DNA of 64,000 bases from Deltaproteobacteria bacterium (GTDB taxonomy: Bacteria > Desulfobacterota > Desulfobacteria > Desulfobacterales > C00003060): assembly GCA_019307135.1 (NCBI GenBank), contig JAFDKF010000002.1:13998-77997 (forward strand). Direction: 5' to 3'. A model generated the notes under the pieces. That model had not been told where the DNA came from. It did not search any database and was given only the letters and a program-made list of their open reading frames with translations. The translations under genes and the position numbers were made by a program. Of this stretch, positions 3,866-39,900 are shown piece after piece. How positions within the stretch are numbered: position 1 is the stretch's first letter; each line of letters starts with the position of its first letter.

Positions 3866-3901
3866 TTATTTCCCTTTATTCCTCCCCTTAATATTGACGG
3901 C

Positions 3902-4007
3902 TTCGTAAAAAGTCCAACTTCTGCGTTGCGCTGCATCCCTCGTCACTGCGGCGTACCATAAGTACGCCTCATTCCTCAGGATTTGCGCGCCTTGAATTTG
4001 GAGCTTT
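3902..4007. mobile_element. MITE-like element family B, right-truncated copy
   Basis: About 106 bp nearly identical to 39762-39867 (TTCGTAAAAAGTCCAACTTCTGCGTTGCGCTGCA...TTGAATTTGGAGCTTTT) but lacking the right inverted terminus. Overlaps the last 10 codons and the stop of ORF 3976-4605. Confidence 0.65.
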
Positions 4008-4605
4008 TGTCTATGGTTCCCACTCTGTACCGCTTTCGTTTCTTTCTTTCGACTGCATAGGCGTCCAAGAATAGCTTGGACTGCACAAAACAGAGCGCAA
4101 ATGGGTCCAGTGCGGTTCGGCTCCCGGGAGCACCATGCCGAAAGTGCACCAGGATACGCCTCTTTTCGTCAACCGCGCGCATGATGTCTTCAAGGATGTC
4201 GGGCCTGCAGTCAAAGCCGTCTTTGATGATAACATCCTGGATGACAGACCTCAAAAGCTGTTTCTGGGATTCGGGGAGGTGATCAATGATGTTGCAAAGC
4301 CCTTTAAGGGCGCGCCGGACGACCGAAAAATCCCTGGTGGCAAACAGATGGCGAGTAGCCAAGACAAGTGCCAGGAGTTCGCTGAGGGGGAGCTTCCCAA
4401 TGGTGACCACAGGATCGCTAAGGATAGTGAAGCGGCCCTTTTCACGTGAAAACCGAAACCCCATTTGTGCAAGCTGATTTCGGTCATAGTAGAATTGTCT
4501 AGTTGATATTCCAAGGTTCTTCGCGATTTGATCAGGCAGCCTGTCGGGCTGTGTTCTGACCTCAACAATGATTCGCAGAAGACGCGCAAGTCGGTGACTT
4601 TGCAT
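3976..4605 (-). CDS. HTH + WYL-domain transcriptional regulator, C-terminus supplied by a repeat element
   Basis: 209-aa ORF. N-terminal wHTH (RLARLLRIIVEVRTQPDRLPDQIAKNLGISTRQFYYDRNQL) and a WYL-like segment (LDPFALCFVQSKLFLDAYAVERKKRKRYRVGTIDK). The tail SSKFKARKS lies inside MITE B. Confidence 0.6.
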   Translation of the reverse strand: MQSHRLARLLRIIVEVRTQPDRLPDQIAKNLGISTRQFYYDRNQLAQMGFRFSREKGRFTILSDPVVTIGKLPLSELLALVLATRHLFATRDFSVVRRALKGLCNIIDHLPESQKQLLRSVIQDVIIKDGFDCRPDILEDIMRAVDEKRRILVHFRHGAPGSRTALDPFALCFVQSKLFLDAYAVERKKRKRYRVGTIDKSSKFKARKS

Positions 4606-4705
4606 GAAAAAATTTTAGATTCTAACAGGTTCAAAGTCAAGGCAAAAAAATCCCCAGCCTCTATTCCTATTGACAGGCTCAATACCTGCTGGTAGTCATT
4701 CATTC

Positions 4706-5500
4706 ATGGCTCACAAGACTCGTGTTGGTGTGCTGATCTCAGGAGGCGGAACCAATCTGCAGGCCATCATCGATGCCTCCAAGTCGAACCGAATAGATGC
4801 AAGGGTCGTCTTTGTGGGTTCGGACAATCCAAAGGCCTACGGTCTCAAGAGGGCACACAAGCATGGAATTCCCACCTTTGTAATCGATTACGAGACTATC
4901 ATGAAAGAGACCCGGGGAAGGCCGCTGGAAGATCTGGTTCCTGAAGGGTTTGATCTGGAAAGAGTATTGGCCGGACAAGATCTCTTGCATGCCTCTTCGA
5001 ACCGCATGAAGGCGCAGCGATACTTCTGCACCAGGGCTATTGCCGAGGCCGCCCTGCTTCGAGAAATGGCAACCTATCCGTTTGACCTTCTGGTCCTGGC
5101 AGGCTTCATGCGAATACTTACCCCCTACTTCATTGATCGCGTCAATACAGATCCGTCACAACCCCGGATTATGAACATCCACCCAGCTCTTCTCCCATCC
5201 TTTCCAGGCGTGGATGGCTATGGTGACACGTATCGCTATGGCTGCAAGGTGGGGGGCTGCACCGTACATTTTGTTGACTATGGAGAAGACACCGGACCTA
5301 TTATTAGACAGAAGGCTTTTGAGATCACCCCCGATGATACCATTGATACGGTCAGGGAGAAGGGACTCAAACTTGAATGGCATCTTTATCTGGAATGCAT
5401 TCAGCTATTTGCAGAAGGCCGTTTGAGGGTAGTTTCCAAGACCTACACGCTGGAAAACGGCACCGAGTTCAACAGAAAGGTCGTTGAAATCGCTACCTAA
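4706..5500 (+). CDS. purN: Phosphoribosylglycinamide formyltransferase
   Basis: MAHKTRVGVLISGGGTNLQAIIDA, LVLAGFMRIL, MNIHPALLPSFPG, GCTVHFV. Start moved to the ATG at 4706. Carries an insert of about 45 aa relative to my memory of E. coli PurN. Confidence 0.85.
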   Translation: MAHKTRVGVLISGGGTNLQAIIDASKSNRIDARVVFVGSDNPKAYGLKRAHKHGIPTFVIDYETIMKETRGRPLEDLVPEGFDLERVLAGQDLLHASSNRMKAQRYFCTRAIAEAALLREMATYPFDLLVLAGFMRILTPYFIDRVNTDPSQPRIMNIHPALLPSFPGVDGYGDTYRYGCKVGGCTVHFVDYGEDTGPIIRQKAFEITPDDTIDTVREKGLKLEWHLYLECIQLFAEGRLRVVSKTYTLENGTEFNRKVVEIAT

Positions 5501-5572
5501 CAAGAATGCGTCGTATCGATTCCATTATTCCATTATTCCAATCGTGAGCGAAGCGAACAAAATTTTACCAGA

Positions 5573-5602
5573 AAGGGGCAGCCTCGTGCGAGCCCCTTTT
5601 TT
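5573..5602 (+). terminator. Putative intrinsic terminator after purN
   Basis: AAGGGGCagcctcgtgcgaGCCCCTTTTTT: short GC stem followed by a T-run. Confidence 0.5.
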
Positions 5603-5646
5603 GCGCTTGACCCGATCCGGGGGACAGGTGATGGGGTAAGATCCTC

Positions 5647-6558
5647 GTGGAACGTCATCATCACAACCACAGTCACGGACTTCTTAGAGAAACAGGCAAA
5701 TCAAGACTTCGTGTAATCCTCGTCCTGACCTCTCTTTTCTTCGTGGTCGAGGTATTGGGGGGCCTTTGGACCAACAGCTTAGCGCTTCTTTCGGATGCTG
5801 GGCACATGCTCTCGGACATGTTTGCCCTGGGACTCAGCCTGTTTGCCTTTTGGCTTTCCTCTAAGAAACCTTCCCCAACCAAGACCTATGGATATTACCG
5901 TTTTGAAGTAGTCGCCGCCTTCATCAACGGCGTGTTGCTCATCCTGATTGCGCTTTGGATTTTCGGGGAGGCTTTCAGCCGTTTTCAGCATCCGGCCACG
6001 GTGAAAAGCATGCCCATGCTTTTTATCGCCATCTTGGGGTTGATGATAAACCTGTTGGGCATCTATTTATTGCATAAGGCCGGAACGGGGAACTTAAACA
6101 TCAGAGGCGCCCTGTTTCATCTTATAGGGGATGCCGCCGGATCCGCAGGGGCGATCACGGCAGCTATTGTGATAAGTCTGACTGGCTGGACGTTCTTTGA
6201 CGCGCTTGTCAGCGTTCTCATTGGGCTTTTGATCATCTACAGCGCATGGCGTCTTCTGTGGGATGTTGTGAACATACTCATGCAGGGAGTGCCGCCTCAT
6301 ATTGATCTGGACAACATCAAACAGGCAATGCTTTGTGTAGATGGTGTGACCGGGCTGTGCGATTTGCACATATGGAGCTTAACCTCGCAGGTGGACACGT
6401 TAAGTGCCCACGTGGTTGTTGAAGATATGGGACGAAATAAAGAGATCCTTGAGAAGTTGACCCGCCTGATAAACGATAAGTTCGGGATCAACCATGTGAC
6501 CCTCCAAATAGAGGATGAGGGGGTGGGGACATGCAAGCTATTCTTGTCGGAAAAATAA
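5647..6558 (+). CDS. Cation diffusion facilitator (CzcD/ZitB-type) metal efflux transporter
   Basis: 303-aa ORF. His-rich N-terminus, six hydrophobic segments, SLALLSDAGHMLSD and HLIGDAAGS motifs, cytoplasmic C-terminal domain. Confidence 0.85.
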   Translation: MERHHHNHSHGLLRETGKSRLRVILVLTSLFFVVEVLGGLWTNSLALLSDAGHMLSDMFALGLSLFAFWLSSKKPSPTKTYGYYRFEVVAAFINGVLLILIALWIFGEAFSRFQHPATVKSMPMLFIAILGLMINLLGIYLLHKAGTGNLNIRGALFHLIGDAAGSAGAITAAIVISLTGWTFFDALVSVLIGLLIIYSAWRLLWDVVNILMQGVPPHIDLDNIKQAMLCVDGVTGLCDLHIWSLTSQVDTLSAHVVVEDMGRNKEILEKLTRLINDKFGINHVTLQIEDEGVGTCKLFLSEK

Positions 6559-7466
6559 AGCCCACGGTTGCCATAGTCGGTTGTGGGACTGTGGGCACGG
6601 CCATAGGTAAACTTCTCAGCGATGCGGGCTATCGCATATCAGGGGTCGCCACGAGCAACCTTGAGACAGCCCGCAGGGCGGCCGAGGTGACAGGTGCCGA
6701 GCGATTCTCCGGTTGTCCCTGGGAGGTCACGCGAGGGGCAGACGTTGTGTTCATCACCACGCCTGATGATTTGATTGAAGCCACGTGCATGAGCATTTCC
6801 GAACATGGGGGCTTTGAAAAGAATGCGGTGGTGATTCACTGCAGCGGCACCCTTTCGTCAGACATCCTTTCGTCAGCCAGAGACTGTGGAGCCGTGGTTG
6901 CAACCCTTCATCCCCTCCAGAGCTTTGCCTCAGTAGATCAGGCCGTCAGCCTGGTGCCCGGTTCTTATTGCACCATTGAAGGTGATAAGAGTGCCCTTCC
7001 AATCGTCCGCCAAATCGTAGAAAACCTGGGGGGTATCCTCTTGGAAATCACAGCAGAGAAAAAGACCCTGTACCATGCAGCAGCCGTAACAGCGTCCAAC
7101 TATCTCGTAACTCTAATGCATCTTGCCCTTAAGTTAGATGAAGCAGCAGGATTGCCCGGTGACATCTCTTTCAATGCTCTCCTTCCCCTGATCAAAGGCA
7201 CCCTGAGTAATATTGGAACAAGAGGGATACCCGACGCCCTAACTGGGCCCATTGCCCGGGGAGACGTGGCAACCGTAGCGGTCCATCTTCAGGCCATAGA
7301 AAAGGATGCTCCAGAGCTTCTCTTACTTTACAGGTGCCTGGGCCTTTACACGGTTGATCTCGCCAAGGCCAAAGGGTCATTAAACAAAGAGGCCTCTGAC
7401 AAACTGATTGCCATGCTTGGGCCACAAAAACTTGACCCCGACAGGTCGGAACCAAACAAGTTGTGA
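6531..7466 (+). CDS. Rossmann-fold oxidoreductase-like protein (DUF2520-type C-terminus)
   Basis: 311-aa ORF. VAIVGCGTVGTAIGKLL dinucleotide-binding motif. Function not assignable from sequence alone. Confidence 0.55.
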   Translation: MQAILVGKIKPTVAIVGCGTVGTAIGKLLSDAGYRISGVATSNLETARRAAEVTGAERFSGCPWEVTRGADVVFITTPDDLIEATCMSISEHGGFEKNAVVIHCSGTLSSDILSSARDCGAVVATLHPLQSFASVDQAVSLVPGSYCTIEGDKSALPIVRQIVENLGGILLEITAEKKTLYHAAAVTASNYLVTLMHLALKLDEAAGLPGDISFNALLPLIKGTLSNIGTRGIPDALTGPIARGDVATVAVHLQAIEKDAPELLLLYRCLGLYTVDLAKAKGSLNKEASDKLIAMLGPQKLDPDRSEPNKL

Positions 7467-7631
7467 GGGCCTATTCGGATGTATTACCCGGTATCCTTAA
7501 ATTCGAAATACGAAGCACGAAATCCGGATTTCGGATTTATTTGATCTTGTTTCCAAATGGAAAGAATTTTCTGCCGGAAAAACACGAATTTCACAACTAA
7601 GCGCCTAACGGTGAACGAAAGGTACTGATCG

Positions 7632-8903
7632 ATGGTGCTGGATAGACTGATAAGCTTGTTGGGCCTTTTTGTCTTGATGTTTCTGGCGTGGGTGGCTTCA
7701 AGGGACAGGAAAAACATCAATGTCAGATTGATACTCACTGGCCTCCTGTTTCAGTGTGTGTTCGCATTCATTGTCTTTAAGCTCTCGGCTGGCGTGGTCA
7801 TCTTCTCCTGGTTGAACGATGCAGCATTAAAGGTGATTTCCTTTGCCAAAGAGGGCATCTACTTTGTTTTTGGACCCCTGTCGGTCTCTCCTGGAGAAAC
7901 CGGCCCCATGGGAGAAACCTCCCCCGGCTTCATTCTTGCCTTCCAGGTGCTCCCTTCGATCATCTTTTTTTCGTCCCTGGTCTCTCTTCTCTACTACCTA
8001 AACATCATCCCGGCCATCATCAAGGTGTTTGCCCGGATATTTACCTACTTGATGCGAATCAGCGGGGCAGAGGCATTGTGCGCCTCGAGCAACATATTTG
8101 TGGGTATTGAATCCGCCGTGACCATCAGACCCTATATCCAGGAAATGACCAGGTCAGAACTCTGCACGGTACTTACAGTAGGTATGGGTACTATCGCTTC
8201 TACGGTGCTCGCCCTGTATGTGGGATTCTTGCACAGGGAATTTCCATCCATAGCCGGCCACTTGATCTCGGCATCTGTCATCAGCGCACCAGCCGCCATT
8301 ATCATGTCAAAGCTCGTTGTCCCTGAGATCGAAAGACCAAAGACACTGGGTATAAGCGTTCATGTAGAAAAAGATCGTCGTTCCAGCACGTGGATCGAGT
8401 CGATCATCATGGGGGCCAATGATGGCGTGAAACTCTGTGTCGGTATCATCACACTTCTGTTGGCATTCCTGGGGTTGCTCTCCATGTTCAACTGGCTCCT
8501 GGGGTTTGTTGGCACCAAGGTTTTCGGAACCGGTCTTTCCTTGCAAATGATTCTGAAATACCTCTACTATCCTATCACACTCATCATGGGGGTACCGTTC
8601 CAGGACGCGGAACAGATCGCCACCCTTCTAGGGGAAAGAACCATTGTCACCGAGGTAGTTTCCTACCAGCACCTACACCAGTTGATCAAGGACGGCGTGA
8701 TTACGGACACGAGAAGCATTACGATTGCCTCGTATGCCCTTTGCGGGTTTGCACACATTGCCTCTCTGGCAATTTTTGTGGGTGGATTTTCGGCCTTAGC
8801 ACCAAGCCGGGCAAAAGATCTCGCCCAGTTAGGTTTCCGGGCACTTTACGCCGCCACACTGGCCTGCCTGATGACAGGCTGTGTGGCAGGTCTGTTTGTA
8901 TAG
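7632..8903 (+). CDS. NupC/CNT-family concentrative nucleoside transporter
   Basis: 423-aa polytopic ORF. N-terminus LGLFVLMFLAWVASRDRKNINVRLILTGLLFQ and the overall layout are typical of the NupC family. Confidence 0.8.
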   Translation: MVLDRLISLLGLFVLMFLAWVASRDRKNINVRLILTGLLFQCVFAFIVFKLSAGVVIFSWLNDAALKVISFAKEGIYFVFGPLSVSPGETGPMGETSPGFILAFQVLPSIIFFSSLVSLLYYLNIIPAIIKVFARIFTYLMRISGAEALCASSNIFVGIESAVTIRPYIQEMTRSELCTVLTVGMGTIASTVLALYVGFLHREFPSIAGHLISASVISAPAAIIMSKLVVPEIERPKTLGISVHVEKDRRSSTWIESIIMGANDGVKLCVGIITLLLAFLGLLSMFNWLLGFVGTKVFGTGLSLQMILKYLYYPITLIMGVPFQDAEQIATLLGERTIVTEVVSYQHLHQLIKDGVITDTRSITIASYALCGFAHIASLAIFVGGFSALAPSRAKDLAQLGFRALYAATLACLMTGCVAGLFV

Positions 8904-9386
8904 CAGGAGACTACGGACAACGGTAATACGAGTGATGGTACCAGGGGTAGTGCCAGTCGTAAAGGTAAGGATCATAAGGCGGTGCACCATTGGGGACGTT
9001 ATATATTAAAACATCAAAGGGTTATACCCCCAAGGGCAACCACGGGTAAGCGCCAAAGAATAGGTGGTCCCTTCGAGCTTGTGAACATTATTGAGTGAGA
9101 AGAGATATCACGTGGGAAAAGGCCTTTGGATCTCCCAAGTTCCCGAGCTACCCCTTTGAGCACATGCCCCCGGATCAAGTCCGGGGCAGGCTCTGGTCTC
9201 AGACTCCCCCGCCTGCCTCGCCTGAGCGCGCCTGCCACCGCGAGGCACGAGCGGGCAGGCGAGAGCGATGGCGGGCAGGTTTTTCGGAGCTCAATATCCC
9301 GCCTTGCGGGACACCCTTGATCCATCCAGCTTCGTACTCCCGTTACTGGGCTTACCCGTGGATTTCACTACTGACCTGCTGGCTAA

Positions 9387-9564
9387 GGGCTCACGCAAGA
9401 ATAACTTACCATTTTGGCATCTCAGCTTCAGGCCGTCTTCGACCGATACTCATTCGCAAAATCCGCGAAATAGCCAGCTATTCCTGTGGCTTTGCTCAAT
9501 CGGATCGGCCAAATCCGACCCAAATCTAAGCGCCAACTCTGCCAAGTTATTCTTGCGTGAGCCC
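9387..9564. repeat. Long inverted repeat (21-bp perfect arms, ~136-bp spacer)
   Basis: GGGCTCACGCAAGAATAACTT at 9387-9407 and its exact reverse complement at 9544-9564. No ORF inside. Confidence 0.8.
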
Positions 9565-9598
9565 TAAGCTTTAGTCAGGTGGGACTTTCCTTCAATTT

Positions 9599-9829
9599 TC
9601 AGTGCCAGAGCGAGCCCTGCAAAGAAGATATGTGACCATACCTCGTCACACGATCACCCACTGGGTAACAATAGCAAATTTCATCCCGCTTTAACGGGAA
9701 TTCCAATGCCTCGGATTTACCTTGGCACGAGCAACGCTTTGTTAGGCCGCCATTTGTGACGGTTTCAATTGTCTCTTCTAGTAACTGGCACACAACTTCC
9801 GTGCTTGACTTAAGGTCACCGGGCAGCAC
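9599..9829 (-). CDS. Hypothetical small protein (possible cassette ORF), GTG start
   Basis: Only open frame in this stretch. No recognisable motif and a weak start context. Confidence 0.25.
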   Translation of the reverse strand: MLPGDLKSSTEVVCQLLEETIETVTNGGLTKRCSCQGKSEALEFPLKRDEICYCYPVGDRVTRYGHISSLQGSLWH

Positions 9830-9836
9830 TGGGCAT

Positions 9837-9941
9837 TTATTTCTTCTTTTCCTTTTTCAATTTTCGTTTTTCCTTTGGATTAAGCTGGGCCTTTTTCTGT
9901 TGTTCCCTTTTGCCTTTATCTTTTTTCCCCTTATCACCCAT
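9837..9941 (-). CDS. Lys-rich 34-aa small protein
   Basis: Below the ORF-track cutoff. Own translation MGDKGKKDKGKREQQKKAQLNPKEKRKLKKEKKK, preceded by AAGGAG 7 nt upstream of the ATG at 9941. Confidence 0.4.
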   Translation of the reverse strand: MGDKGKKDKGKREQQKKAQLNPKEKRKLKKEKKK

Positions 9942-10051
9942 ATCTATTTCTCCTTGCTTGAAAATGACTTGCGCCGGACTGTGGCGCCGAAAACCCATCT
10001 TCGGTCGTAGAGGTTAGCAGATGAGATCGTTTGGCATCACCGCCAGATGAA

Positions 10052-10261
10052 TCATGCATATTCGTAGACGGGAGTCTCGATAAACTTCGCAGGCTTCCGA
10101 TTACCCTTGATGAGCGCTTGAATGTGCTCCACGGTTTCCGGAGAGAAATACTGCTCTCCCGTTTCCTTGCACACCCTTGCCGGAACATGTTCAATAATAT
10201 AAAACTTACCTTCATGCTCAATGGTATAGTTAACCTGTGCATCTAACATGGTCTCTTTCAT
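10052..10261 (-). CDS. MqsA/YgiT-like antitoxin-type protein with degenerate zinc ribbon
   Basis: MKETMLDAQVNYTIEHEGKFYIIEHVPARVCKETGEQYFSPETVEHIQALI resembles the VPaxvCxxCGExYfs core of YgiT-type antitoxins, but most Cys are lost. The ATG at 10261 overlaps an upstream TGA as ATGA. Confidence 0.5.
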   Translation of the reverse strand: MKETMLDAQVNYTIEHEGKFYIIEHVPARVCKETGEQYFSPETVEHIQALIKGNRKPAKFIETPVYEYA

Positions 10262-10441
10262 TTCTCCCTCCTTATTCGGTAATTGACCCATAGTGCTGGA
10301 TCAGGCTCGTACAGCGTAATGATCTTGATCAATAACTTCCATTACGCTGATCTCACGAACAATGGTCTGATCGACAGCATGCTTGGAGAACTCGTACTGA
10401 CGCCGACCAACCTTCTCTTTAATACCCTCAAGCGTATACAT
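10258..10441 (-). pseudogene. Decayed DUF4258-type toxin gene
   Basis: Own translation from the ATG at 10441: MYTLEGIKEKVGRRQYEFSKHAVDQTIVREISVMEVIDQ, then a stop at 10301. A +1 frame continues KIITLYEPDPALWVNYRIRREK and ends in the ATGA overlap with the antitoxin. This looks like an internal deletion or frameshift. Confidence 0.4.
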
Positions 10442-10488
10442 ATCTAAAATACTCTACTGACCTCAACACTCTCCGTCAATCCTCAAAT

Positions 10489-10570
10489 GCCCAACATATA
10501 TTGTCTGGAAACTAAAAATAGTGAGTATTCTGGAAATCTGTATTTGACAATAAAGATGCATTCTGTATAT
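10489..10570 (-). promoter_or_regulatory. Candidate attI region
   Basis: GTTGGGC (fits GTTRRRY) on the minus strand at 10495-10489. Direct repeats TCTGGAAA at 10504 and 10529, and TCTGTAT at 10537 and 10562, each pair 25 bp apart. Lies between intI and the first small minus-strand ORFs. Confidence 0.35.
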
Positions 10571-10571
10571 T
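10544..10571 (+). promoter_or_regulatory. Putative sigma70-type promoter of intI
   Basis: TTGACA (10544-10549), 16-nt spacer, TATATT (10566-10571), 24 nt upstream of the first start codon. Confidence 0.5.
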
Positions 10572-10594
10572 ACAATAAAACTTGATCAGTCACG

Positions 10595-11956
10595 ATGAAA
10601 TTGGGGGGCATTATGGATCAAAAACCAAATAACGTCAATAAATTTTGGCTGTCATACCGTGATGCTGCTGTCAGCTCGGGGATAGCCGAGAAGACTGCCG
10701 AATGGTATGTGCACTGGGCACAAAAATTCGCGGTTTCGATAAAAGGTAAAGGACTTCGATCGCGTTCATCAAAGGATGTTCAAAGCTTTCTTAACCAGCT
10801 CAAACGCCAAAATGGGATAGAGCAGTGGCAGGTGCAACAGGCTCGCGAGGCACTCGTTTTCCTATACCGTGACTTTCTCAAGCTCAACCTCAGATCTCAA
10901 AAATCAACTGCCAAGAAAAAAGGGCAAAAAGTTGAGGAAAACAAGGGAGAGTCCCATTTTCTGGACAATATTGTTTCAAAAACTGAGCTGTATGGAAAAC
11001 ATGCACAGCTTTTCAAACGACTGCAAACCGAGCTGAGGACACGGCATTATTCACCTCGCACAGAGCAAGCATACAAGGGCTGGGTAGGACGATTTTTATC
11101 CTTCCACGGGCTGAAGCAACCGGATCAGATTGGTCCTGAAGACATAAAGGATTTTCTGGATTATCTGGCACAGGTCCGGAATGTTTCAGCTTCTACGCAG
11201 AACCAGGCCCTGAATGCCATTGTTTTTCTCTACAGTCAGGTATTTAAAGCTGATCCCGGTCGTTTTGAAGATTTTGTCCGGGCCAAACACCGAAAGAGGC
11301 TGCCGGAAGTCTTGACGCAAAGTGAGGTCCAGCGGCTCTTGGGGTGCATGAACGGTCGTTCCCATTTAATGGCCGGGCTTTTATATGGCAGTGGATTGAG
11401 GTTGATGGAATGTGTCAGGCTGAGGGTAAAAGACATTGACTTTAAGGGGCAGCAGATCTTGGTACGTGATGGAAAAGGGCAGAAAGACCGTGTGACCATT
11501 CTACCGGAAAAATTTGCTCCCCTTTTAAAAAATCAACTGAAACATGTGAAAGGACTTTACAAGCAGGATATAGAAGCAGGTTCTGCAGGGGTTTATATAT
11601 GGCCTGCATTAGAGCGAAAATATCCCAATGCGGCCCGGCAATGGATCTGGCAGTATGTGTTTCCTGCTTCCAAGCTGTCCATGGATCCGCAAAGTCGAAA
11701 AGTGCGGCGGCATCACATTCACGAAAGTTCCCTTCAAAAGGCGGTAAAAGCTGCCACAAAAAAGGCGGAGCTGACGAAGCGAGCGACCTGCCACACCTTC
11801 CGACATTCCTTTGCCACGCATCTTCTGGAAGGCGGATACGATATCCGCACTGTACAGAAGCTTTTGGGACATTCGGATGTTTCAGCGACAATGATTTATA
11901 TGCACGTCTTAAATAAGCCCGGGTTGGCGGTAAAAAGCCCGTTGGATGTGTTGTAG
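10595..11956 (+). CDS. intI: Integron integrase (IntI) with duplicated N-terminal SAM-like domain
   Basis: [22 protein letters not shown], the IntI-specific block [87 protein letters not shown]. Alternative start at 10613. Confidence 0.85.
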
Positions 11957-12007: not shown

Positions 12008-12469
12008 TCACTTCTTATAACTAAACAGACAGTTAGGGGTTAGACGATAGCCCTCTTCAGTTGCATCCGCATCCATTGGCAACGCGTGTCTTGTTGTCTC
12101 CAATGTCAACCCTCTACAGATTTCAGGCTTGTTGTCAGGATGGCCAGCACAAAGATTATCCTTTGTCAAAAGCTCACACCTCATATGGACGGTGACAAGC
12201 CGTGGCAAGAACTCACAACGCTCATCAGGAATGTTAAGTACGTTACCCTCCACCTTGACACCGTGCAGTTCGAAATACCATTTCTTGTCAGGGTTCATCG
12301 GTACAGGGATCTTAAACACGCCATCTTTGATTGTTATGTCAGTGTTCGATCCAACAGGGCATTGGAACCCCTTACAACATTCAGCGTCACAATACTTCAA
12401 CCAGCATAGACAATTATCACAGCCTTTAGCCTTCTCAATCATCGTCATCTTAAGCTTTTCTGTTTTCAT
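12008..12469 (-). CDS. Cys-rich protein, YkgJ-like cysteine-cluster family (tentative)
   Basis: 153-aa ORF with CDNCLCWLKYCDAECC and further Cys pairs. Convergent with intI. Confidence 0.5.
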   Translation of the reverse strand: MKTEKLKMTMIEKAKGCDNCLCWLKYCDAECCKGFQCPVGSNTDITIKDGVFKIPVPMNPDKKWYFELHGVKVEGNVLNIPDERCEFLPRLVTVHMRCELLTKDNLCAGHPDNKPEICRGLTLETTRHALPMDADATEEGYRLTPNCLFSYKK

Positions 12470-12761: not shown

Positions 12762-13661
12762 TTGATGAAAAAAAAGGCTCAACATAAATCCGGATTTGTT
12801 GCCATTGTGGGTGCGCCCAATGTGGGCAAATCCACCCTGCTGAACCAGCTTCTCGGGCAAAAGATCGCCATTACATCGGAAAAGCCACAGACCACCCGCC
12901 ACCGCATCCTGGGCGTGGCCCATCTGCCCGGGGCCCAGCTTATCTTTCTGGATACCCCTGGTATTCATCGGGCGAGGGGGCCGTTGAATGTGCGCATGGT
13001 GGAGGTGGCCCTGAAGGTTCTGGGGGATGTAGATTTGGTCGTGTTCATTACAGATGCGACCTATCCGGATAATCCATCAGATGAAATCATCCTTGACTCT
13101 TTGAAAAAGAGAAACCTACCGGTCATTCTTGCCATTAACAAGGTTGACCTTGTAAACAAGGAAACACTCCTTCCCCTCATAGAACAGTGGCATGAGGCCT
13201 ATCCTTTCCGCGCCATCGTTCCCATCTCGGCTCTTGAGCGTATCCAGATTGATGACCTTTTGTCAGAGATGGTTGCCGTGCTACCCGAGGGGCCACAGTA
13301 TTATCCGGAAGACAGCGTCACGGATTTGCCGGAACGCTTTATCGCGGCAGAGATGATACGGGAAAAAGTATTCCGCCTGACCGGCCAGGAGATTCCTTAC
13401 GGTGTGGCCGTTACGGTGGAGTCCTTCAAGGATCGGCCCGGGAAAAATCTCATTGACATCCAGGCCACAATACACGTGGAGCGCGAGTCTCAAAAACCGA
13501 TCATCATTGGCAAGTCAGGGAGAATGCTCAAACGGATCGGGGAGCAGGCCAGACAGGACATCGAGCTCATGGTGGGGTGCAAAGTCTTCTTAAAGTTATG
13601 GGTTCGGGTTCAGAAGAACTGGACCCGGGATGAAAAGGCTATCAGGAGGTTTGGATACTGA
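12762..13661 (+). CDS. era: GTPase Era
   Basis: SGFVAIVGAPNVGKSTLLN (G1), DTPGIH (G3), NKVD (G4), C-terminal KH domain (KPIIIGKSGRMLKRIG). Confidence 0.9.
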   Translation: MMKKKAQHKSGFVAIVGAPNVGKSTLLNQLLGQKIAITSEKPQTTRHRILGVAHLPGAQLIFLDTPGIHRARGPLNVRMVEVALKVLGDVDLVVFITDATYPDNPSDEIILDSLKKRNLPVILAINKVDLVNKETLLPLIEQWHEAYPFRAIVPISALERIQIDDLLSEMVAVLPEGPQYYPEDSVTDLPERFIAAEMIREKVFRLTGQEIPYGVAVTVESFKDRPGKNLIDIQATIHVERESQKPIIIGKSGRMLKRIGEQARQDIELMVGCKVFLKLWVRVQKNWTRDEKAIRRFGY

Positions 13662-17855: not shown

Positions 17856-18140
17856 GATGATATCCTTTCTCCAGGAGAAGAAATTGGAGTTGTCACTTTT
17901 GCAGAAAGCTCAAGAGTGAGAGCCTCAGTACAAACAGATACTGGATGCTGGATACCGGATGAAAAATCAAGAACCAAAAATCCAGTATCCAGTATCCGGT
18001 AGTTTGTGCCGAGAAGATTTCTTTCAAACCTGCCCGCCATTGCCATGTATGCTGGCATTGCAGTTACCCGGAGAGCATGGCGCTGGCAGGCGGGGATACA
18101 CGGTCATCTGCCCCAAAAACATTATCTTTAAATCTATGGC

Positions 18141-28232: not shown

Positions 28233-28321
28233 TGTTGGCTATGCCTCCTTAGATAAAATCGCGGAGCGATTTTACTCATTCAGAAATTTGGAAACTGTTT
28301 ATCTTGAACTTTTCCCCCATA

Positions 28322-28405
28322 AAACCCCACTTTGGTAAAGGGGGACTTTTCCGCCGAAGGCGGATTCCCCCCTTTGGTAAAGGGGGGTTAGGGGGAATTA
28401 ATTGA
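28322..28405. repeat. Palindromic C/G-run element, family D
   Basis: CCCCACTTTGGTAAAGGGGG...CCCCCCTTTGGTAAAGGGGGGTTAGGGGGAATT. Related copy inside dsrN at 48221-48306. Confidence 0.5.
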
Positions 28406-28425
28406 GTTTCCAAATTTCCGTTTTA

Positions 28426-38941: not shown

Positions 38942-39757
38942 GTGCAAGAATTAAAGCATATAATATCTAACACCATCATTGAGGCCAATAGAAAGATGAC
39001 CCCTGGCGAGGTGGAAAAGGCTATTGCCAGGGCCACTGGGCTTGACAGAAAAACCGTCAAGCTTGCCATTAGAGATCTGGTTAGTCTGGGAGAACTGAGC
39101 TACACGTATGTCTACGGCACGAGCTTTTTGGAAAAGTCCTTTGACCGCCCGGTTCAGCTTTCCAAAAGGATTGTGATTAAGCCTCCCGATAAGGCGTACA
39201 AACCACAACCCGGCGAGGTGTCGGTCAATATTGCTGCGGGAGCAGCCTTCGGAAATGGTGCCCACCCAACCACCTGCCTGGTCCTGAGGGCCTTGGATTC
39301 TGTCCTGGGTGATTGTGATTACCTAAAACGAAGGACGTCTTTAACGGGGTTGGATGTTGGCACCGGTACAGGTATCCTGGCCATTGCGCTGGCAAGGCTC
39401 GGTGTTCAGAAAATCATCGCCACTGACATAGACCCGTGTGCTGTATCCGAGGCCACCTATAATGTCACATTGAATGGGCTTGCTGATCAAGTCACGATTA
39501 CGAATGCCCTTTTGGAGGAGCTTGCTACATATTTTTCTGTAATTGTGGCCAATCTGGCTTACCCAACGCTCAGGAGGCTGTCAGCCGTTCTATCAGAAAA
39601 GTTGGAACAAGGTGGCGTTCTGGTCCTTTCAGGTTTCAAGGAGCCCTTATCGAAAGATCTTGGAAAAACCTATACAGAACAAGGCCTCAGGTTGATCCAG
39701 GAAGAAACAGACCGCGAATGGGTCTGTCTTGTGTTACGCAAACCAGGACAGCCCTGA
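38942..39757 (+). CDS. PrmA-like class I SAM-dependent methyltransferase with N-terminal winged-helix segment
   Basis: FGNGAHPTTCLVLRAL, LDVGTGTGILAIALARLG, VIVANL. Start uncertain: GTG at 38942 or ATG at 38996. The track start at 38831 overlaps the opposite-strand ORF. Confidence 0.65.
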   Translation: MQELKHIISNTIIEANRKMTPGEVEKAIARATGLDRKTVKLAIRDLVSLGELSYTYVYGTSFLEKSFDRPVQLSKRIVIKPPDKAYKPQPGEVSVNIAAGAAFGNGAHPTTCLVLRALDSVLGDCDYLKRRTSLTGLDVGTGTGILAIALARLGVQKIIATDIDPCAVSEATYNVTLNGLADQVTITNALLEELATYFSVIVANLAYPTLRRLSAVLSEKLEQGGVLVLSGFKEPLSKDLGKTYTEQGLRLIQEETDREWVCLVLRKPGQP

Positions 39758-39761
39758 CGGC

Positions 39762-39900
39762 TTCGTAAAAAGTCCAACTTCTGCGTTGCGCTGCACCCTT
39801 CGTCACTGCGGCGTACCATAAGTACGCCTCATTTCTCAGGATTTGCGCGCCTTGAATTTGGAGCTTTTTACTTTGCCGTCTAATTTGGACTTTTTACGAA
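39762..39900. mobile_element. MITE-like element family B, full copy (139 bp)
   Basis: 16-bp perfect inverted termini TTCGTAAAAAGTCCAA / TTGGACTTTTTACGAA. Left ~106 bp nearly identical to 3902-4007. Confidence 0.7.

Follow-up and report, generated by a model that had tools for sequence, protein, structure and literature searches.

Integron platforms made up of an intI gene with no recognisable attC site within 4 kb form the In0 class of IntegronFinder (Cury et al. 2016, PMC4889954). Group II introns of the IIC-attC type (for example S.ma.I2) occupy the attC bottom strand, run opposite to cassette transcription, have TTGT/T in R'' as their insertion point and carry a reverse transcriptase (RT) gene, and truncated copies within cassette arrays have already been described (PMC3001079, PMC7923331). 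A same-orientation group IIB intron has also been reported beside an attC (PMC7923331). Here we describe a locus that touches on both themes, region 8904-11956 of a 64,000-nt stretch of contig JAFDKF010000002.1 (hereafter the window), in which an intI-attI-cassette arrangement had been predicted from the sequence. We conclude that the region is quite probably a small sedentary chromosomal integron in decay, carried by a Desulfobacterales-type genome. The locus is an ordinary example of an already known system with some instructive details, a real but run-down integron that would be an In0 by the IntegronFinder definition and, biologically, a one-cassette integron in decay. The overall geometry of the original prediction is supported, with amendments that concern the direction of a promoter, the standing of a 76-aa open reading frame (ORF) and the nature of the structured DNA.

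The ORF proposed to encode the integrase is present at 10595-11956 (+ strand, 453 codons), and alignment with VchIntIA of Vibrio cholerae (PDB 2A3V) bears out both its tyrosine-recombinase motifs and its IntI-specific block. The alignment extends over integrase residues 143-451 (E 4e-86), takes in the R (GLRLMEC), K (GKGQK), HxxR (HTFRH), H (GHSD) and Y (MIYMH) motifs and spans the IntI-specific insert (ALERKYPNA...RRHH). The match to an integron-integrase-specific hidden Markov model that had been suggested as a check was obtained with NCBIfam TIGR02249, at 469.9 bits against a cutoff of 265. XerA, XerC and XerD models match as well, more weakly and all under their cutoffs, and these matches are what would favour a Xer-like or phage-type recombinase whose likeness to an integron is coincidental. 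That explanation is effectively refuted by the TIGR02249 score far over its cutoff, by the alignment of the insert with VchIntIA, by cassette exchange exactly at G|TT and by the attC arrays that relatives carry, both described below. The predicted integrase is intact and keeps all catalytic residues. Its true start is probably ATG 10613 and not ATG 10595, since related integrases measure 445-448 aa and begin with MDQK or MDRK, and since the upstream ATG is out of frame in the related locus L176, which has one fewer G.

Comparison with two relatives defines attI. Window positions 10842-10493, which hold the 5' end of intI and attI, are 88% identical to L176 427-750, and the window, L176 and L171 (IntI 80% identical) are alike in their intI-proximal DNA up to ...ATATGTT, where they part into GTTGGGC, GTTATGT and GTTCTGC, respectively. 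The window and L176 both read ...TTTCCAGACAATATAT-GTT before diverging. The GTTGGGC core predicted on the cassette strand (GCCCAAC at 10489-10495 on the + strand) is thereby confirmed, and the comparison with L176 and L171 fixes the predicted crossover at 10495, G|TT. L176 also provides a control: past attI it continues with ATGT and a Peptidase_S26 cassette with an attC of 29.3 bits, and the R'' box (ACATAAC) of the attC of its first cassette, which starts with GTTATGT, is the perfect complement of that start. To our knowledge, attI is unknown for most integrons. The present locus offers a clean, comparison-based attI and crossover for a poorly studied integrase group of sulfate-reducer lineages.

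The toxin-antitoxin (TA) pair that had been noticed in a cassette-like tract next to attI proves to be a mobile cassette, which L176 carries with 99-100% identity at a different place in its array. There it lies further down the array and begins exactly at GTTGGGC, the R' of the preceding attC. L176 2635-2796 is 99.4% identical to window 10495-10334, and L176 2931-3196 is 100% identical to window 10333-10068. A cassette starting at GTTGGGC in two contexts is the classic signature of movement by recombination at G|TT. The exchange appears recent, because the cassettes are 99-100% identical while the intI/attI platforms are only 88% identical. The 134 bp of L176 that lie between the two matching blocks (2797-2930) are absent from the window, whose toxin has lost its C-terminal half: its ORF spans only 46 aa, against 73-81 aa and a PF14076 domain in the homologs (P0241-P0243). 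The antitoxin matches TIGR03831 (YgiT_finger) at 34 bits against a cutoff of 20.2. Held against a type II TA pair of the DUF4258/YgiT kind, the pair in the window has the antitoxin domain without an intact toxin of family length. TA cassettes are common in chromosomal integrons, and others occur in L166, L169 and L171. The 34-aa Lys-rich ORF downstream has no Pfam or NCBIfam match. No attC was found between the antitoxin gene and this ORF by the covariance model or the half-site position weight matrices (PWMs) described below, and the ORF is therefore probably part of the same cassette.

Both pairs of direct repeats described beside intI could be read in the sequence, TCTGGAAA at 10504 and 10529 and TCTGTAT at 10537 and 10562, the second pair being listed by a repeat search as well. 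Both copies of TTTCCAGA within attI are kept in L176 and represent putative IntI-binding sites. The TCTGTAT repeat is part of a 25-bp tandem duplication (10537-10561 and 10562-10586) that occurs in the window, L170 and L171 and is single-copy in L176. The TTGACA-16-TATATT promoter, which had been described as divergent from intI, is present but lies on the + strand and points into intI, and we list it as a candidate PintI. In the cassette direction, TTGACG-17-CATAAT is a putative Pc; L170 and L176 retain the two hexamers, and L171 keeps the -35 and has CATTAT as its -10, but coding constraint confounds this conservation. Within the cassette, 10479-10451 holds a second promoter-like site. A reading of the promoter repeats as a LexA box was dropped, as they form no CTGT-N8-ACAG palindrome.

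Canonical attC pairs had not been found by eye, and a validated covariance model detects none either. The model (R1) was built from 49 trimmed attC sites of 33 loci and describes an R box, a spacer and two helices parted by single-base bulges; its training set was supplied by a two-bulge structural matcher that is too strict for the arrays of close relatives. R1 recovered the held-out arrays L083, L121 and L053 at 20-50 bits, together with many untrained sites in L029, L022, L166, L169, L007 and L009, down to about 16 bits. Run with filters off over the 64 kb, it found no intact attC. Its best match (7603-7664, 13.3 bits, E about 1) has an R'' (GCCCAAC) that fits the cassette GTTGGGC, and was rejected as an unstructured stretch inside nupC coding sequence that is conserved in relatives without the integron. 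The second match reaches 9.4 bits at 9689-9747. An 85-nt hairpin at 9663-9747 was also rejected as a complete attC, with 9.4 bits only, a multi-branched fold and a GTT that reads ATT in L046, another integron considered below.

These results bear on the alternative that the integron is complete and fully functional, its attC sites being non-canonical or very long and unrecognised by the detectors used. R1 does miss genuine sites longer than about 125 nt in L166, L169 and L176, and the R' boxes of close relatives can be atypical (GTTAGCA and GTTATGC, for example), both of which speak for this alternative. Sites beyond about 125 nt were covered by folding scans up to 170 nt and by half-site PWMs, however, and these argue the other way. 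Regex-plus-folding scans (RYYYAAC...GTTRRRY, 45-170 nt, strict and relaxed) found the real arrays of L022, L029, L064 and L083 and nothing attC-like in the tract, which also lacks the clade-specific attC motifs (CCAGTGGAGCTGAC / GGGCCGCAGCTCACTT). The tract holds no attC 3' half: the 3'-half PWM stays at or below 9.2 bits, and the sole such match is inside the antitoxin gene. A 230-nt candidate at 9585-9850 was rejected, as it folds no better than shuffles (z = -1.9). We consider a complete and functional integron very improbable.

The preferred reading of an integron in decay draws on an attC of which one half persists. In place of a cassette end with a foldable attC, only a 5' half was found, the R''-L'' half GCCTAACAAAGCGTTGC... 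at 9747-9723. It is the best 5'-half PWM match of the 64-kb window (16.9 bits; the next scores 10.4 overall and 5.8 in the tract), and its R'' pairs with the cassette GTTGGGC at 6/7 positions plus a T-G wobble. Such pairing is expected of the cassette's own attC, as in the L176 control. The stretch 9658-9747 is homologous to the 5' part of an attC that lies upstream of an intron in L046. What gives the half-site significance is where it lies, on which strand, and that it is homologous to L046, its score alone being weak. The 76-aa ORF is probably not a gene, since it overlies the attC half-site and the start of the intron.

About 600 bp of this tract had been described as ORF-less structured DNA. 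Mechanical ORFs of 103 and 144 aa, without family match, do occur there, and the structure corresponds to a probable group II intron remnant interrupted by an insertion resembling a miniature inverted-repeat transposable element (MITE). RF02005 (group II intron D1-D4, domains 1 to 4) matches the cassette strand at 9404-9194 with 23.7 bits (E 1.4e-4), under the gathering threshold of 49. The window is colinear with L046 from the 5' part of the attC (9747-9658), over the junction CCCAGTGG|GTGA and on into domain 1 as far as about 9110, and BLASTN aligns window 9128-9170 to L046 just 3' of its RF02005 region. In L046, RF02005 scores 88 bits and a domain 5/6 (D5/D6) match follows 450 nt downstream, on the cassette strand and with no RT ORF. 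The L046 intron splits a long attC (R'' GCCGAAC, R' GTTGGGC), whose joined exons fold with the R boxes paired (-33.7 kcal/mol); when the putative exons on either side of the window remnant were joined, no attC-like fold was restored, unlike in L046. In 8880-9850 of the window there is no match to RF00029 or a D5 family at E <= 10. Because domains 5 and 6, both in L046, are absent, the window holds an intron fragment and not an intron. The 178-bp MITE-like element has perfect 21-bp terminal inverted repeats (TIRs) at 9564-9544 and 9407-9387, which self-BLAST reports as an inverted match, and it interrupts a hairpin that is continuous in the L046 intron and in the Rfam consensus.

As an observation in its own right, L046 7673-8631 carries a group II intron of about 790 nt that has no ORF and is apparently complete; it is inserted on the cassette-sense strand, midway in an attC of 173 nt. 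The D5 of this intron begins with GAACCG instead of the AGC-type triad expected at a group II D5.

One could hold instead that only an In0-type platform is real, namely intI, attI and the TA cassette, and that all DNA left of about 9830 is unrelated junk or rearranged chromosomal sequence. The lack of a complete attC, a half-site that alone is not significant over the whole window, an Rfam match under the gathering threshold and a position by nupC at a synteny breakpoint would all agree with this. Yet in the L046 integron, too, the 5' part of an attC is followed by this type of intron, with order and strand unchanged; the half-site has an R'' that matches the cassette GTTGGGC, and no other 5'-half match on the cassette strand of the tract comes near its score. 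Together these points make the explanation unlikely. The L046 intron and the window remnant could further represent an undescribed ORF-less group II lineage that homes into the cassette-sense strand of one attC family and is spread by cassette mobility. We rate this idea, jointly with the role proposed below for the extra integrase domain, as doubtful.

Taken as an integron in decay, the locus suggests the following history. Comparison shows that a TA cassette (DUF4258 toxin and YgiT antitoxin) is inserted at the attI crossover and that a later 134-bp deletion truncated the toxin gene, leaving the antitoxin gene intact. Beyond the antitoxin gene, the cassette would also take in the 34-aa Lys-rich ORF and end in an attC of its own, of which only the R''-L'' half would survive. 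An ORF-less group II intron pointing the same way as the cassette would have entered this attC, an arrangement that L046 shows intact, the MITE-like element would then have hit the intron, and intron domains 2-6 and the 3' half of the attC would have been lost. With no complete attC, the cassette would no longer be excisable. Provided that the integrase is active, attI x attC recombination could still bring new cassettes into the platform (intI, PintI, attI and the candidate Pc).

Several observations weigh against this account. The identity of the intron, its Rfam score being under threshold, depends on colinearity with a single other locus, and its direction is that of the cassettes, opposite to the described group IIC-attC introns (PMC3001079). 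A second copy of the 178-bp element was found neither elsewhere in the 64-kb window nor in the other loci compared with it. The half-site score of 16.9 bits was reached in 6/20 mononucleotide shuffles of the whole window. R1 is blind to attC sites above about 125 nt, so that a long atypical attC could escape it, and L176 does not reach the intact 3' end of the TA cassette, as its contig ends inside the antitoxin gene. Finally, the integrase has a non-consensus residue in six columns with conservation of at least 95% (Y187F, R366Q, L402F, E422K, T431A and T436M), ranking 4th of 118 in such departures. Four of the six lie near the catalytic Tyr, which T436M adjoins, and Y187F is the only one shared with the 93%-identical P0001. 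These departures may mean relaxed constraint or lost integrase function, without being proof of either.

A duplicated N-terminal SAM-like domain had been recognised in the integrase, and two PF13495 domains are indeed found at residues 22-98 and 139-219, conserved across relatives. The isolated N-terminus matches PF13495 at 50 bits, and BLASTP aligns the first domain to the second at E 3e-5. AlphaFold2, run on a 115-sequence alignment, predicts two confident four-helix bundles, one at residues 7-88 (helices 7-21, 26-42, 53-65 and 71-88, pLDDT 85-93) and one that mirrors it at 131-210; the Lys-rich basic linker between them (95-118) is disordered (pLDDT < 50). The extension, with its invariant residues, is present in at least 120 clusters of 55-93% identity, mostly labelled Desulfobacterales or Thermodesulfobacteriota, and also occurs in Chromatiales, Nitrospira and Verrucomicrobiota genomes; the extra domain matches 637 representative clusters at E <= 1e-3. 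Cassette arrays adjoin extended integrases in L166, L167 and L168, where a BrnT cassette turns over between samples, and in L169 and L022. Given this wide conservation and the real arrays beside extended integrases, the extra domain is a family trait of active integrons and not a local accident.

Placement among IntI proteins, also suggested as a check, puts the window integrase inside an all-extended clade of 19 in a rough neighbour-joining tree of 134 IntI cores. Extended integrases as a whole do not form one clean clade in this tree (11 Fitch changes), in which contigs truncated at the N-terminus partly blur the classification into extended and non-extended proteins. We found no description of a tandem N-terminal domain of IntI in the openly searchable full-text literature. 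The domain might serve as an arm-type DNA-binding module on accessory repeats of attI, such as the TTTCCAGA pair 25 bp apart, an idea covered by the same doubtful rating as the intron lineage above. If true, these integrons would have a site architecture or a level of control not available to class 1 and Vibrio integrases. Widespread and with no role assigned, the tandem domain is a candidate for biochemistry.

Three related platforms deserve mention for their integrase genes. In L176 (1-430) the gene is broken after codon 77 and continues into unrelated G+C-rich sequence, and the cassette array keeps good attC sites; this is a route of decay opposite to that of the window. In L171 (about 355-375) the extra N-terminal domain contains a stop (KF-stop, against KFW in relatives), so that the called protein starts later, possibly the mark of a pseudogene or of a sequencing error. 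In L002 (10001-11959; complete 5.2-Mb genome CP070762.1) a lexA-like gene (LexA_DNA_bind and Peptidase_S24) directly follows an extended-type intI, a neighbour of interest as integrases are known to be under SOS control.

The tract had been described as wedged between a nupC-like gene and era. Both flanking genes are found, but a 153-aa Cys-rich protein gene also lies between intI and era; it has zero Pfam or NCBIfam matches. Three loci (L172-L174, DNA 87-89% identical) are colinear with the window from 4006 to 8908 and wholly different thereafter, and a fourth (L175, DNA 72-78% identical) is colinear up to 8898; all four are without intI, and L172-L174 lose homology exactly at the nupC stop. 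On the other side, L090 (96-98% identical) is colinear with the window from inside intI to 17870. In these alignments, the position directly after nupC is a synteny breakpoint abutting the integron. The tract is not conserved housekeeping DNA, since nupC-syntenic relatives that are without intI are also without the tract. The original prediction would have been refuted by a tract without attC that is conserved in relatives lacking the integrase; no attC was found, yet the tract is missing from those relatives.

The base composition of the tract was only partly as predicted: 9650-10700 is AT-richer (GC 0.39-0.48), but 9050-9500 is GC-richer than the flanks (0.58-0.60). Of the small minus-strand ORFs, the TA pair and the 34-aa and 76-aa frames are present, but the last is probably spurious. 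Between 8000 and 13000 there is no tRNA or tmRNA and no Rfam family other than the group II intron, and the stretch 8904-9109 yielded no RNA family, attC 3' half or protein family. In tBLASTn searches of the small ORFs against a set of the other loci, the Cys-rich gene in L090 was the sole match.

Features of the integron locus and its neighbours, in window coordinates
Feature	Position	Strand	Basis or remark
nupC-like CNT transporter gene	end at 8903		Pfam domain matches
Leftover stretch	8904..9109	(-)	Between intron fragment and nupC stop; weak likeness to L046 3' exon at 8945-8932
Probable group II intron remnant, rest of domain 1	9110..9386	(-)	RF02005 and BLASTN to L046
MITE-like insertion, 178 bp	9387..9564	(-)	21-bp perfect TIRs and flanking TTA (or CTTAG) duplication
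Probable group II intron remnant, 5' end (GTGAT...) and start of domain 1	9565..9657	(-)	MAFFT alignment with L046 intron, insertion removed
76-aa ORF, probably not a gene	9599-9829	(-)	Overlies attC half-site and intron start
attC remnant	9658..9747	(-)	R''-L'' half at 9747-9723; extends to intron junction
34-aa Lys-rich ORF	9837..9941	(-)	ORF list; GGAG ribosome-binding site
YgiT/MqsA-type antitoxin-like gene, 69 aa from ATG 10261	10052..10261	(-)	TIGR03831
Truncated DUF4258 toxin gene, 46 aa	10301..10441	(-)	134-bp deletion junction at 10334/10333
attI	10489..10536	(-)	Crossover core GTTGGGC at 10495-10489 (G|TT)
Two TTTCCAGA motifs in attI	10511-10504 and 10536-10529	(-)	Putative IntI-binding sites
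PintI candidate, TTGACA-16-TATATT	10544..10571	(+)	Promoter scan 11/12; consensus match only; inside 25-bp tandem duplication
Candidate Pc, TTGACG-17-CATAAT	10610..10638	(-)	Promoter scan 10/12; consensus match only; overlaps intI start, faces attI and cassette
intI, integron integrase, 447 aa	10613..11956	(+)	TIGR02249 and VchIntIA alignment
Extra N-terminal SAM-like (core-binding-like) four-helix domain	10631..10876	(+)	PF13495, BLASTP, AlphaFold2
153-aa Cys-rich protein gene	12008-12469	(-)	Between intI and era; 97% conserved in L090
Era-like GTPase gene	12762-13661		

Other repeats occur elsewhere in the window. A repeat of about 114 bp is found twice (3895-4008 and 39755-39868, 97% identical), with a further copy in L090 (6480-6599) directly after the point that matches window 17870, where the window sequence differs; it may be a small mobile or REP-like element. 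An 80-nt near-perfect hairpin of CCGGATACTGGATACTGGAT-type repeats at 17929-18008 was a false candidate in the attC scan. A 124-nt G+C-rich multi-hairpin element at 28289-28412, flanked by TGGAAAC...GTTTCCA (about -31 kcal/mol as DNA), is unrelated to attC.

The locus illustrates a possible course of decay of a small integron, in which the toxin was deleted and the antitoxin kept, and in which an intron would have invaded the attC, a MITE-like element would have landed in that intron and the 3' part would have disappeared. Of wider interest are an attI defined by comparison, a tandem N-terminal domain that is widespread among relatives, and an ORF-less group II intron that lies in cassette sense and is tied to attC.

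Compared with known systems, the locus shares with sedentary chromosomal integrons and In0 elements an IntI with its specific insert, beside which lies an attI where the crossover is at GTT. Also shared are the placing of the cassette on the other strand from intI and the presence of a TA cassette. The locus differs from an In0 in that its platform is not empty, as one cassette lies at attI, its attC destroyed. The integrase resembles VchIntIA (IntI4 of Vibrio cholerae, 2A3V) in its catalytic residues and in the extra helix region used for attC recognition, whereas the solved 320-residue chain of VchIntIA is without the extra domain and the window protein has about 130 additional N-terminal residues, the four-helix SAM-like domain and its disordered basic linker. 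The TA cassette agrees with DUF4258 (PF14076) and YgiT-MqsA cassettes in gene order, sizes and domain matches, but its toxin is without the C-terminal half and its antitoxin domain has one Cys only, for which reason the antitoxin may not bind zinc. As with group IIC-attC introns, a group II intron, here a truncated copy, is associated with an integron attC. In contrast to those introns, the introns of the window and L046 are cassette-sense and have no RT ORF, the L046 copy lies about 87 nt inside a long attC, and the window copy is a fragment only. Lying on the same strand as the cassettes and having no RT ORF, the window element falls outside the IIC-attC lineage.

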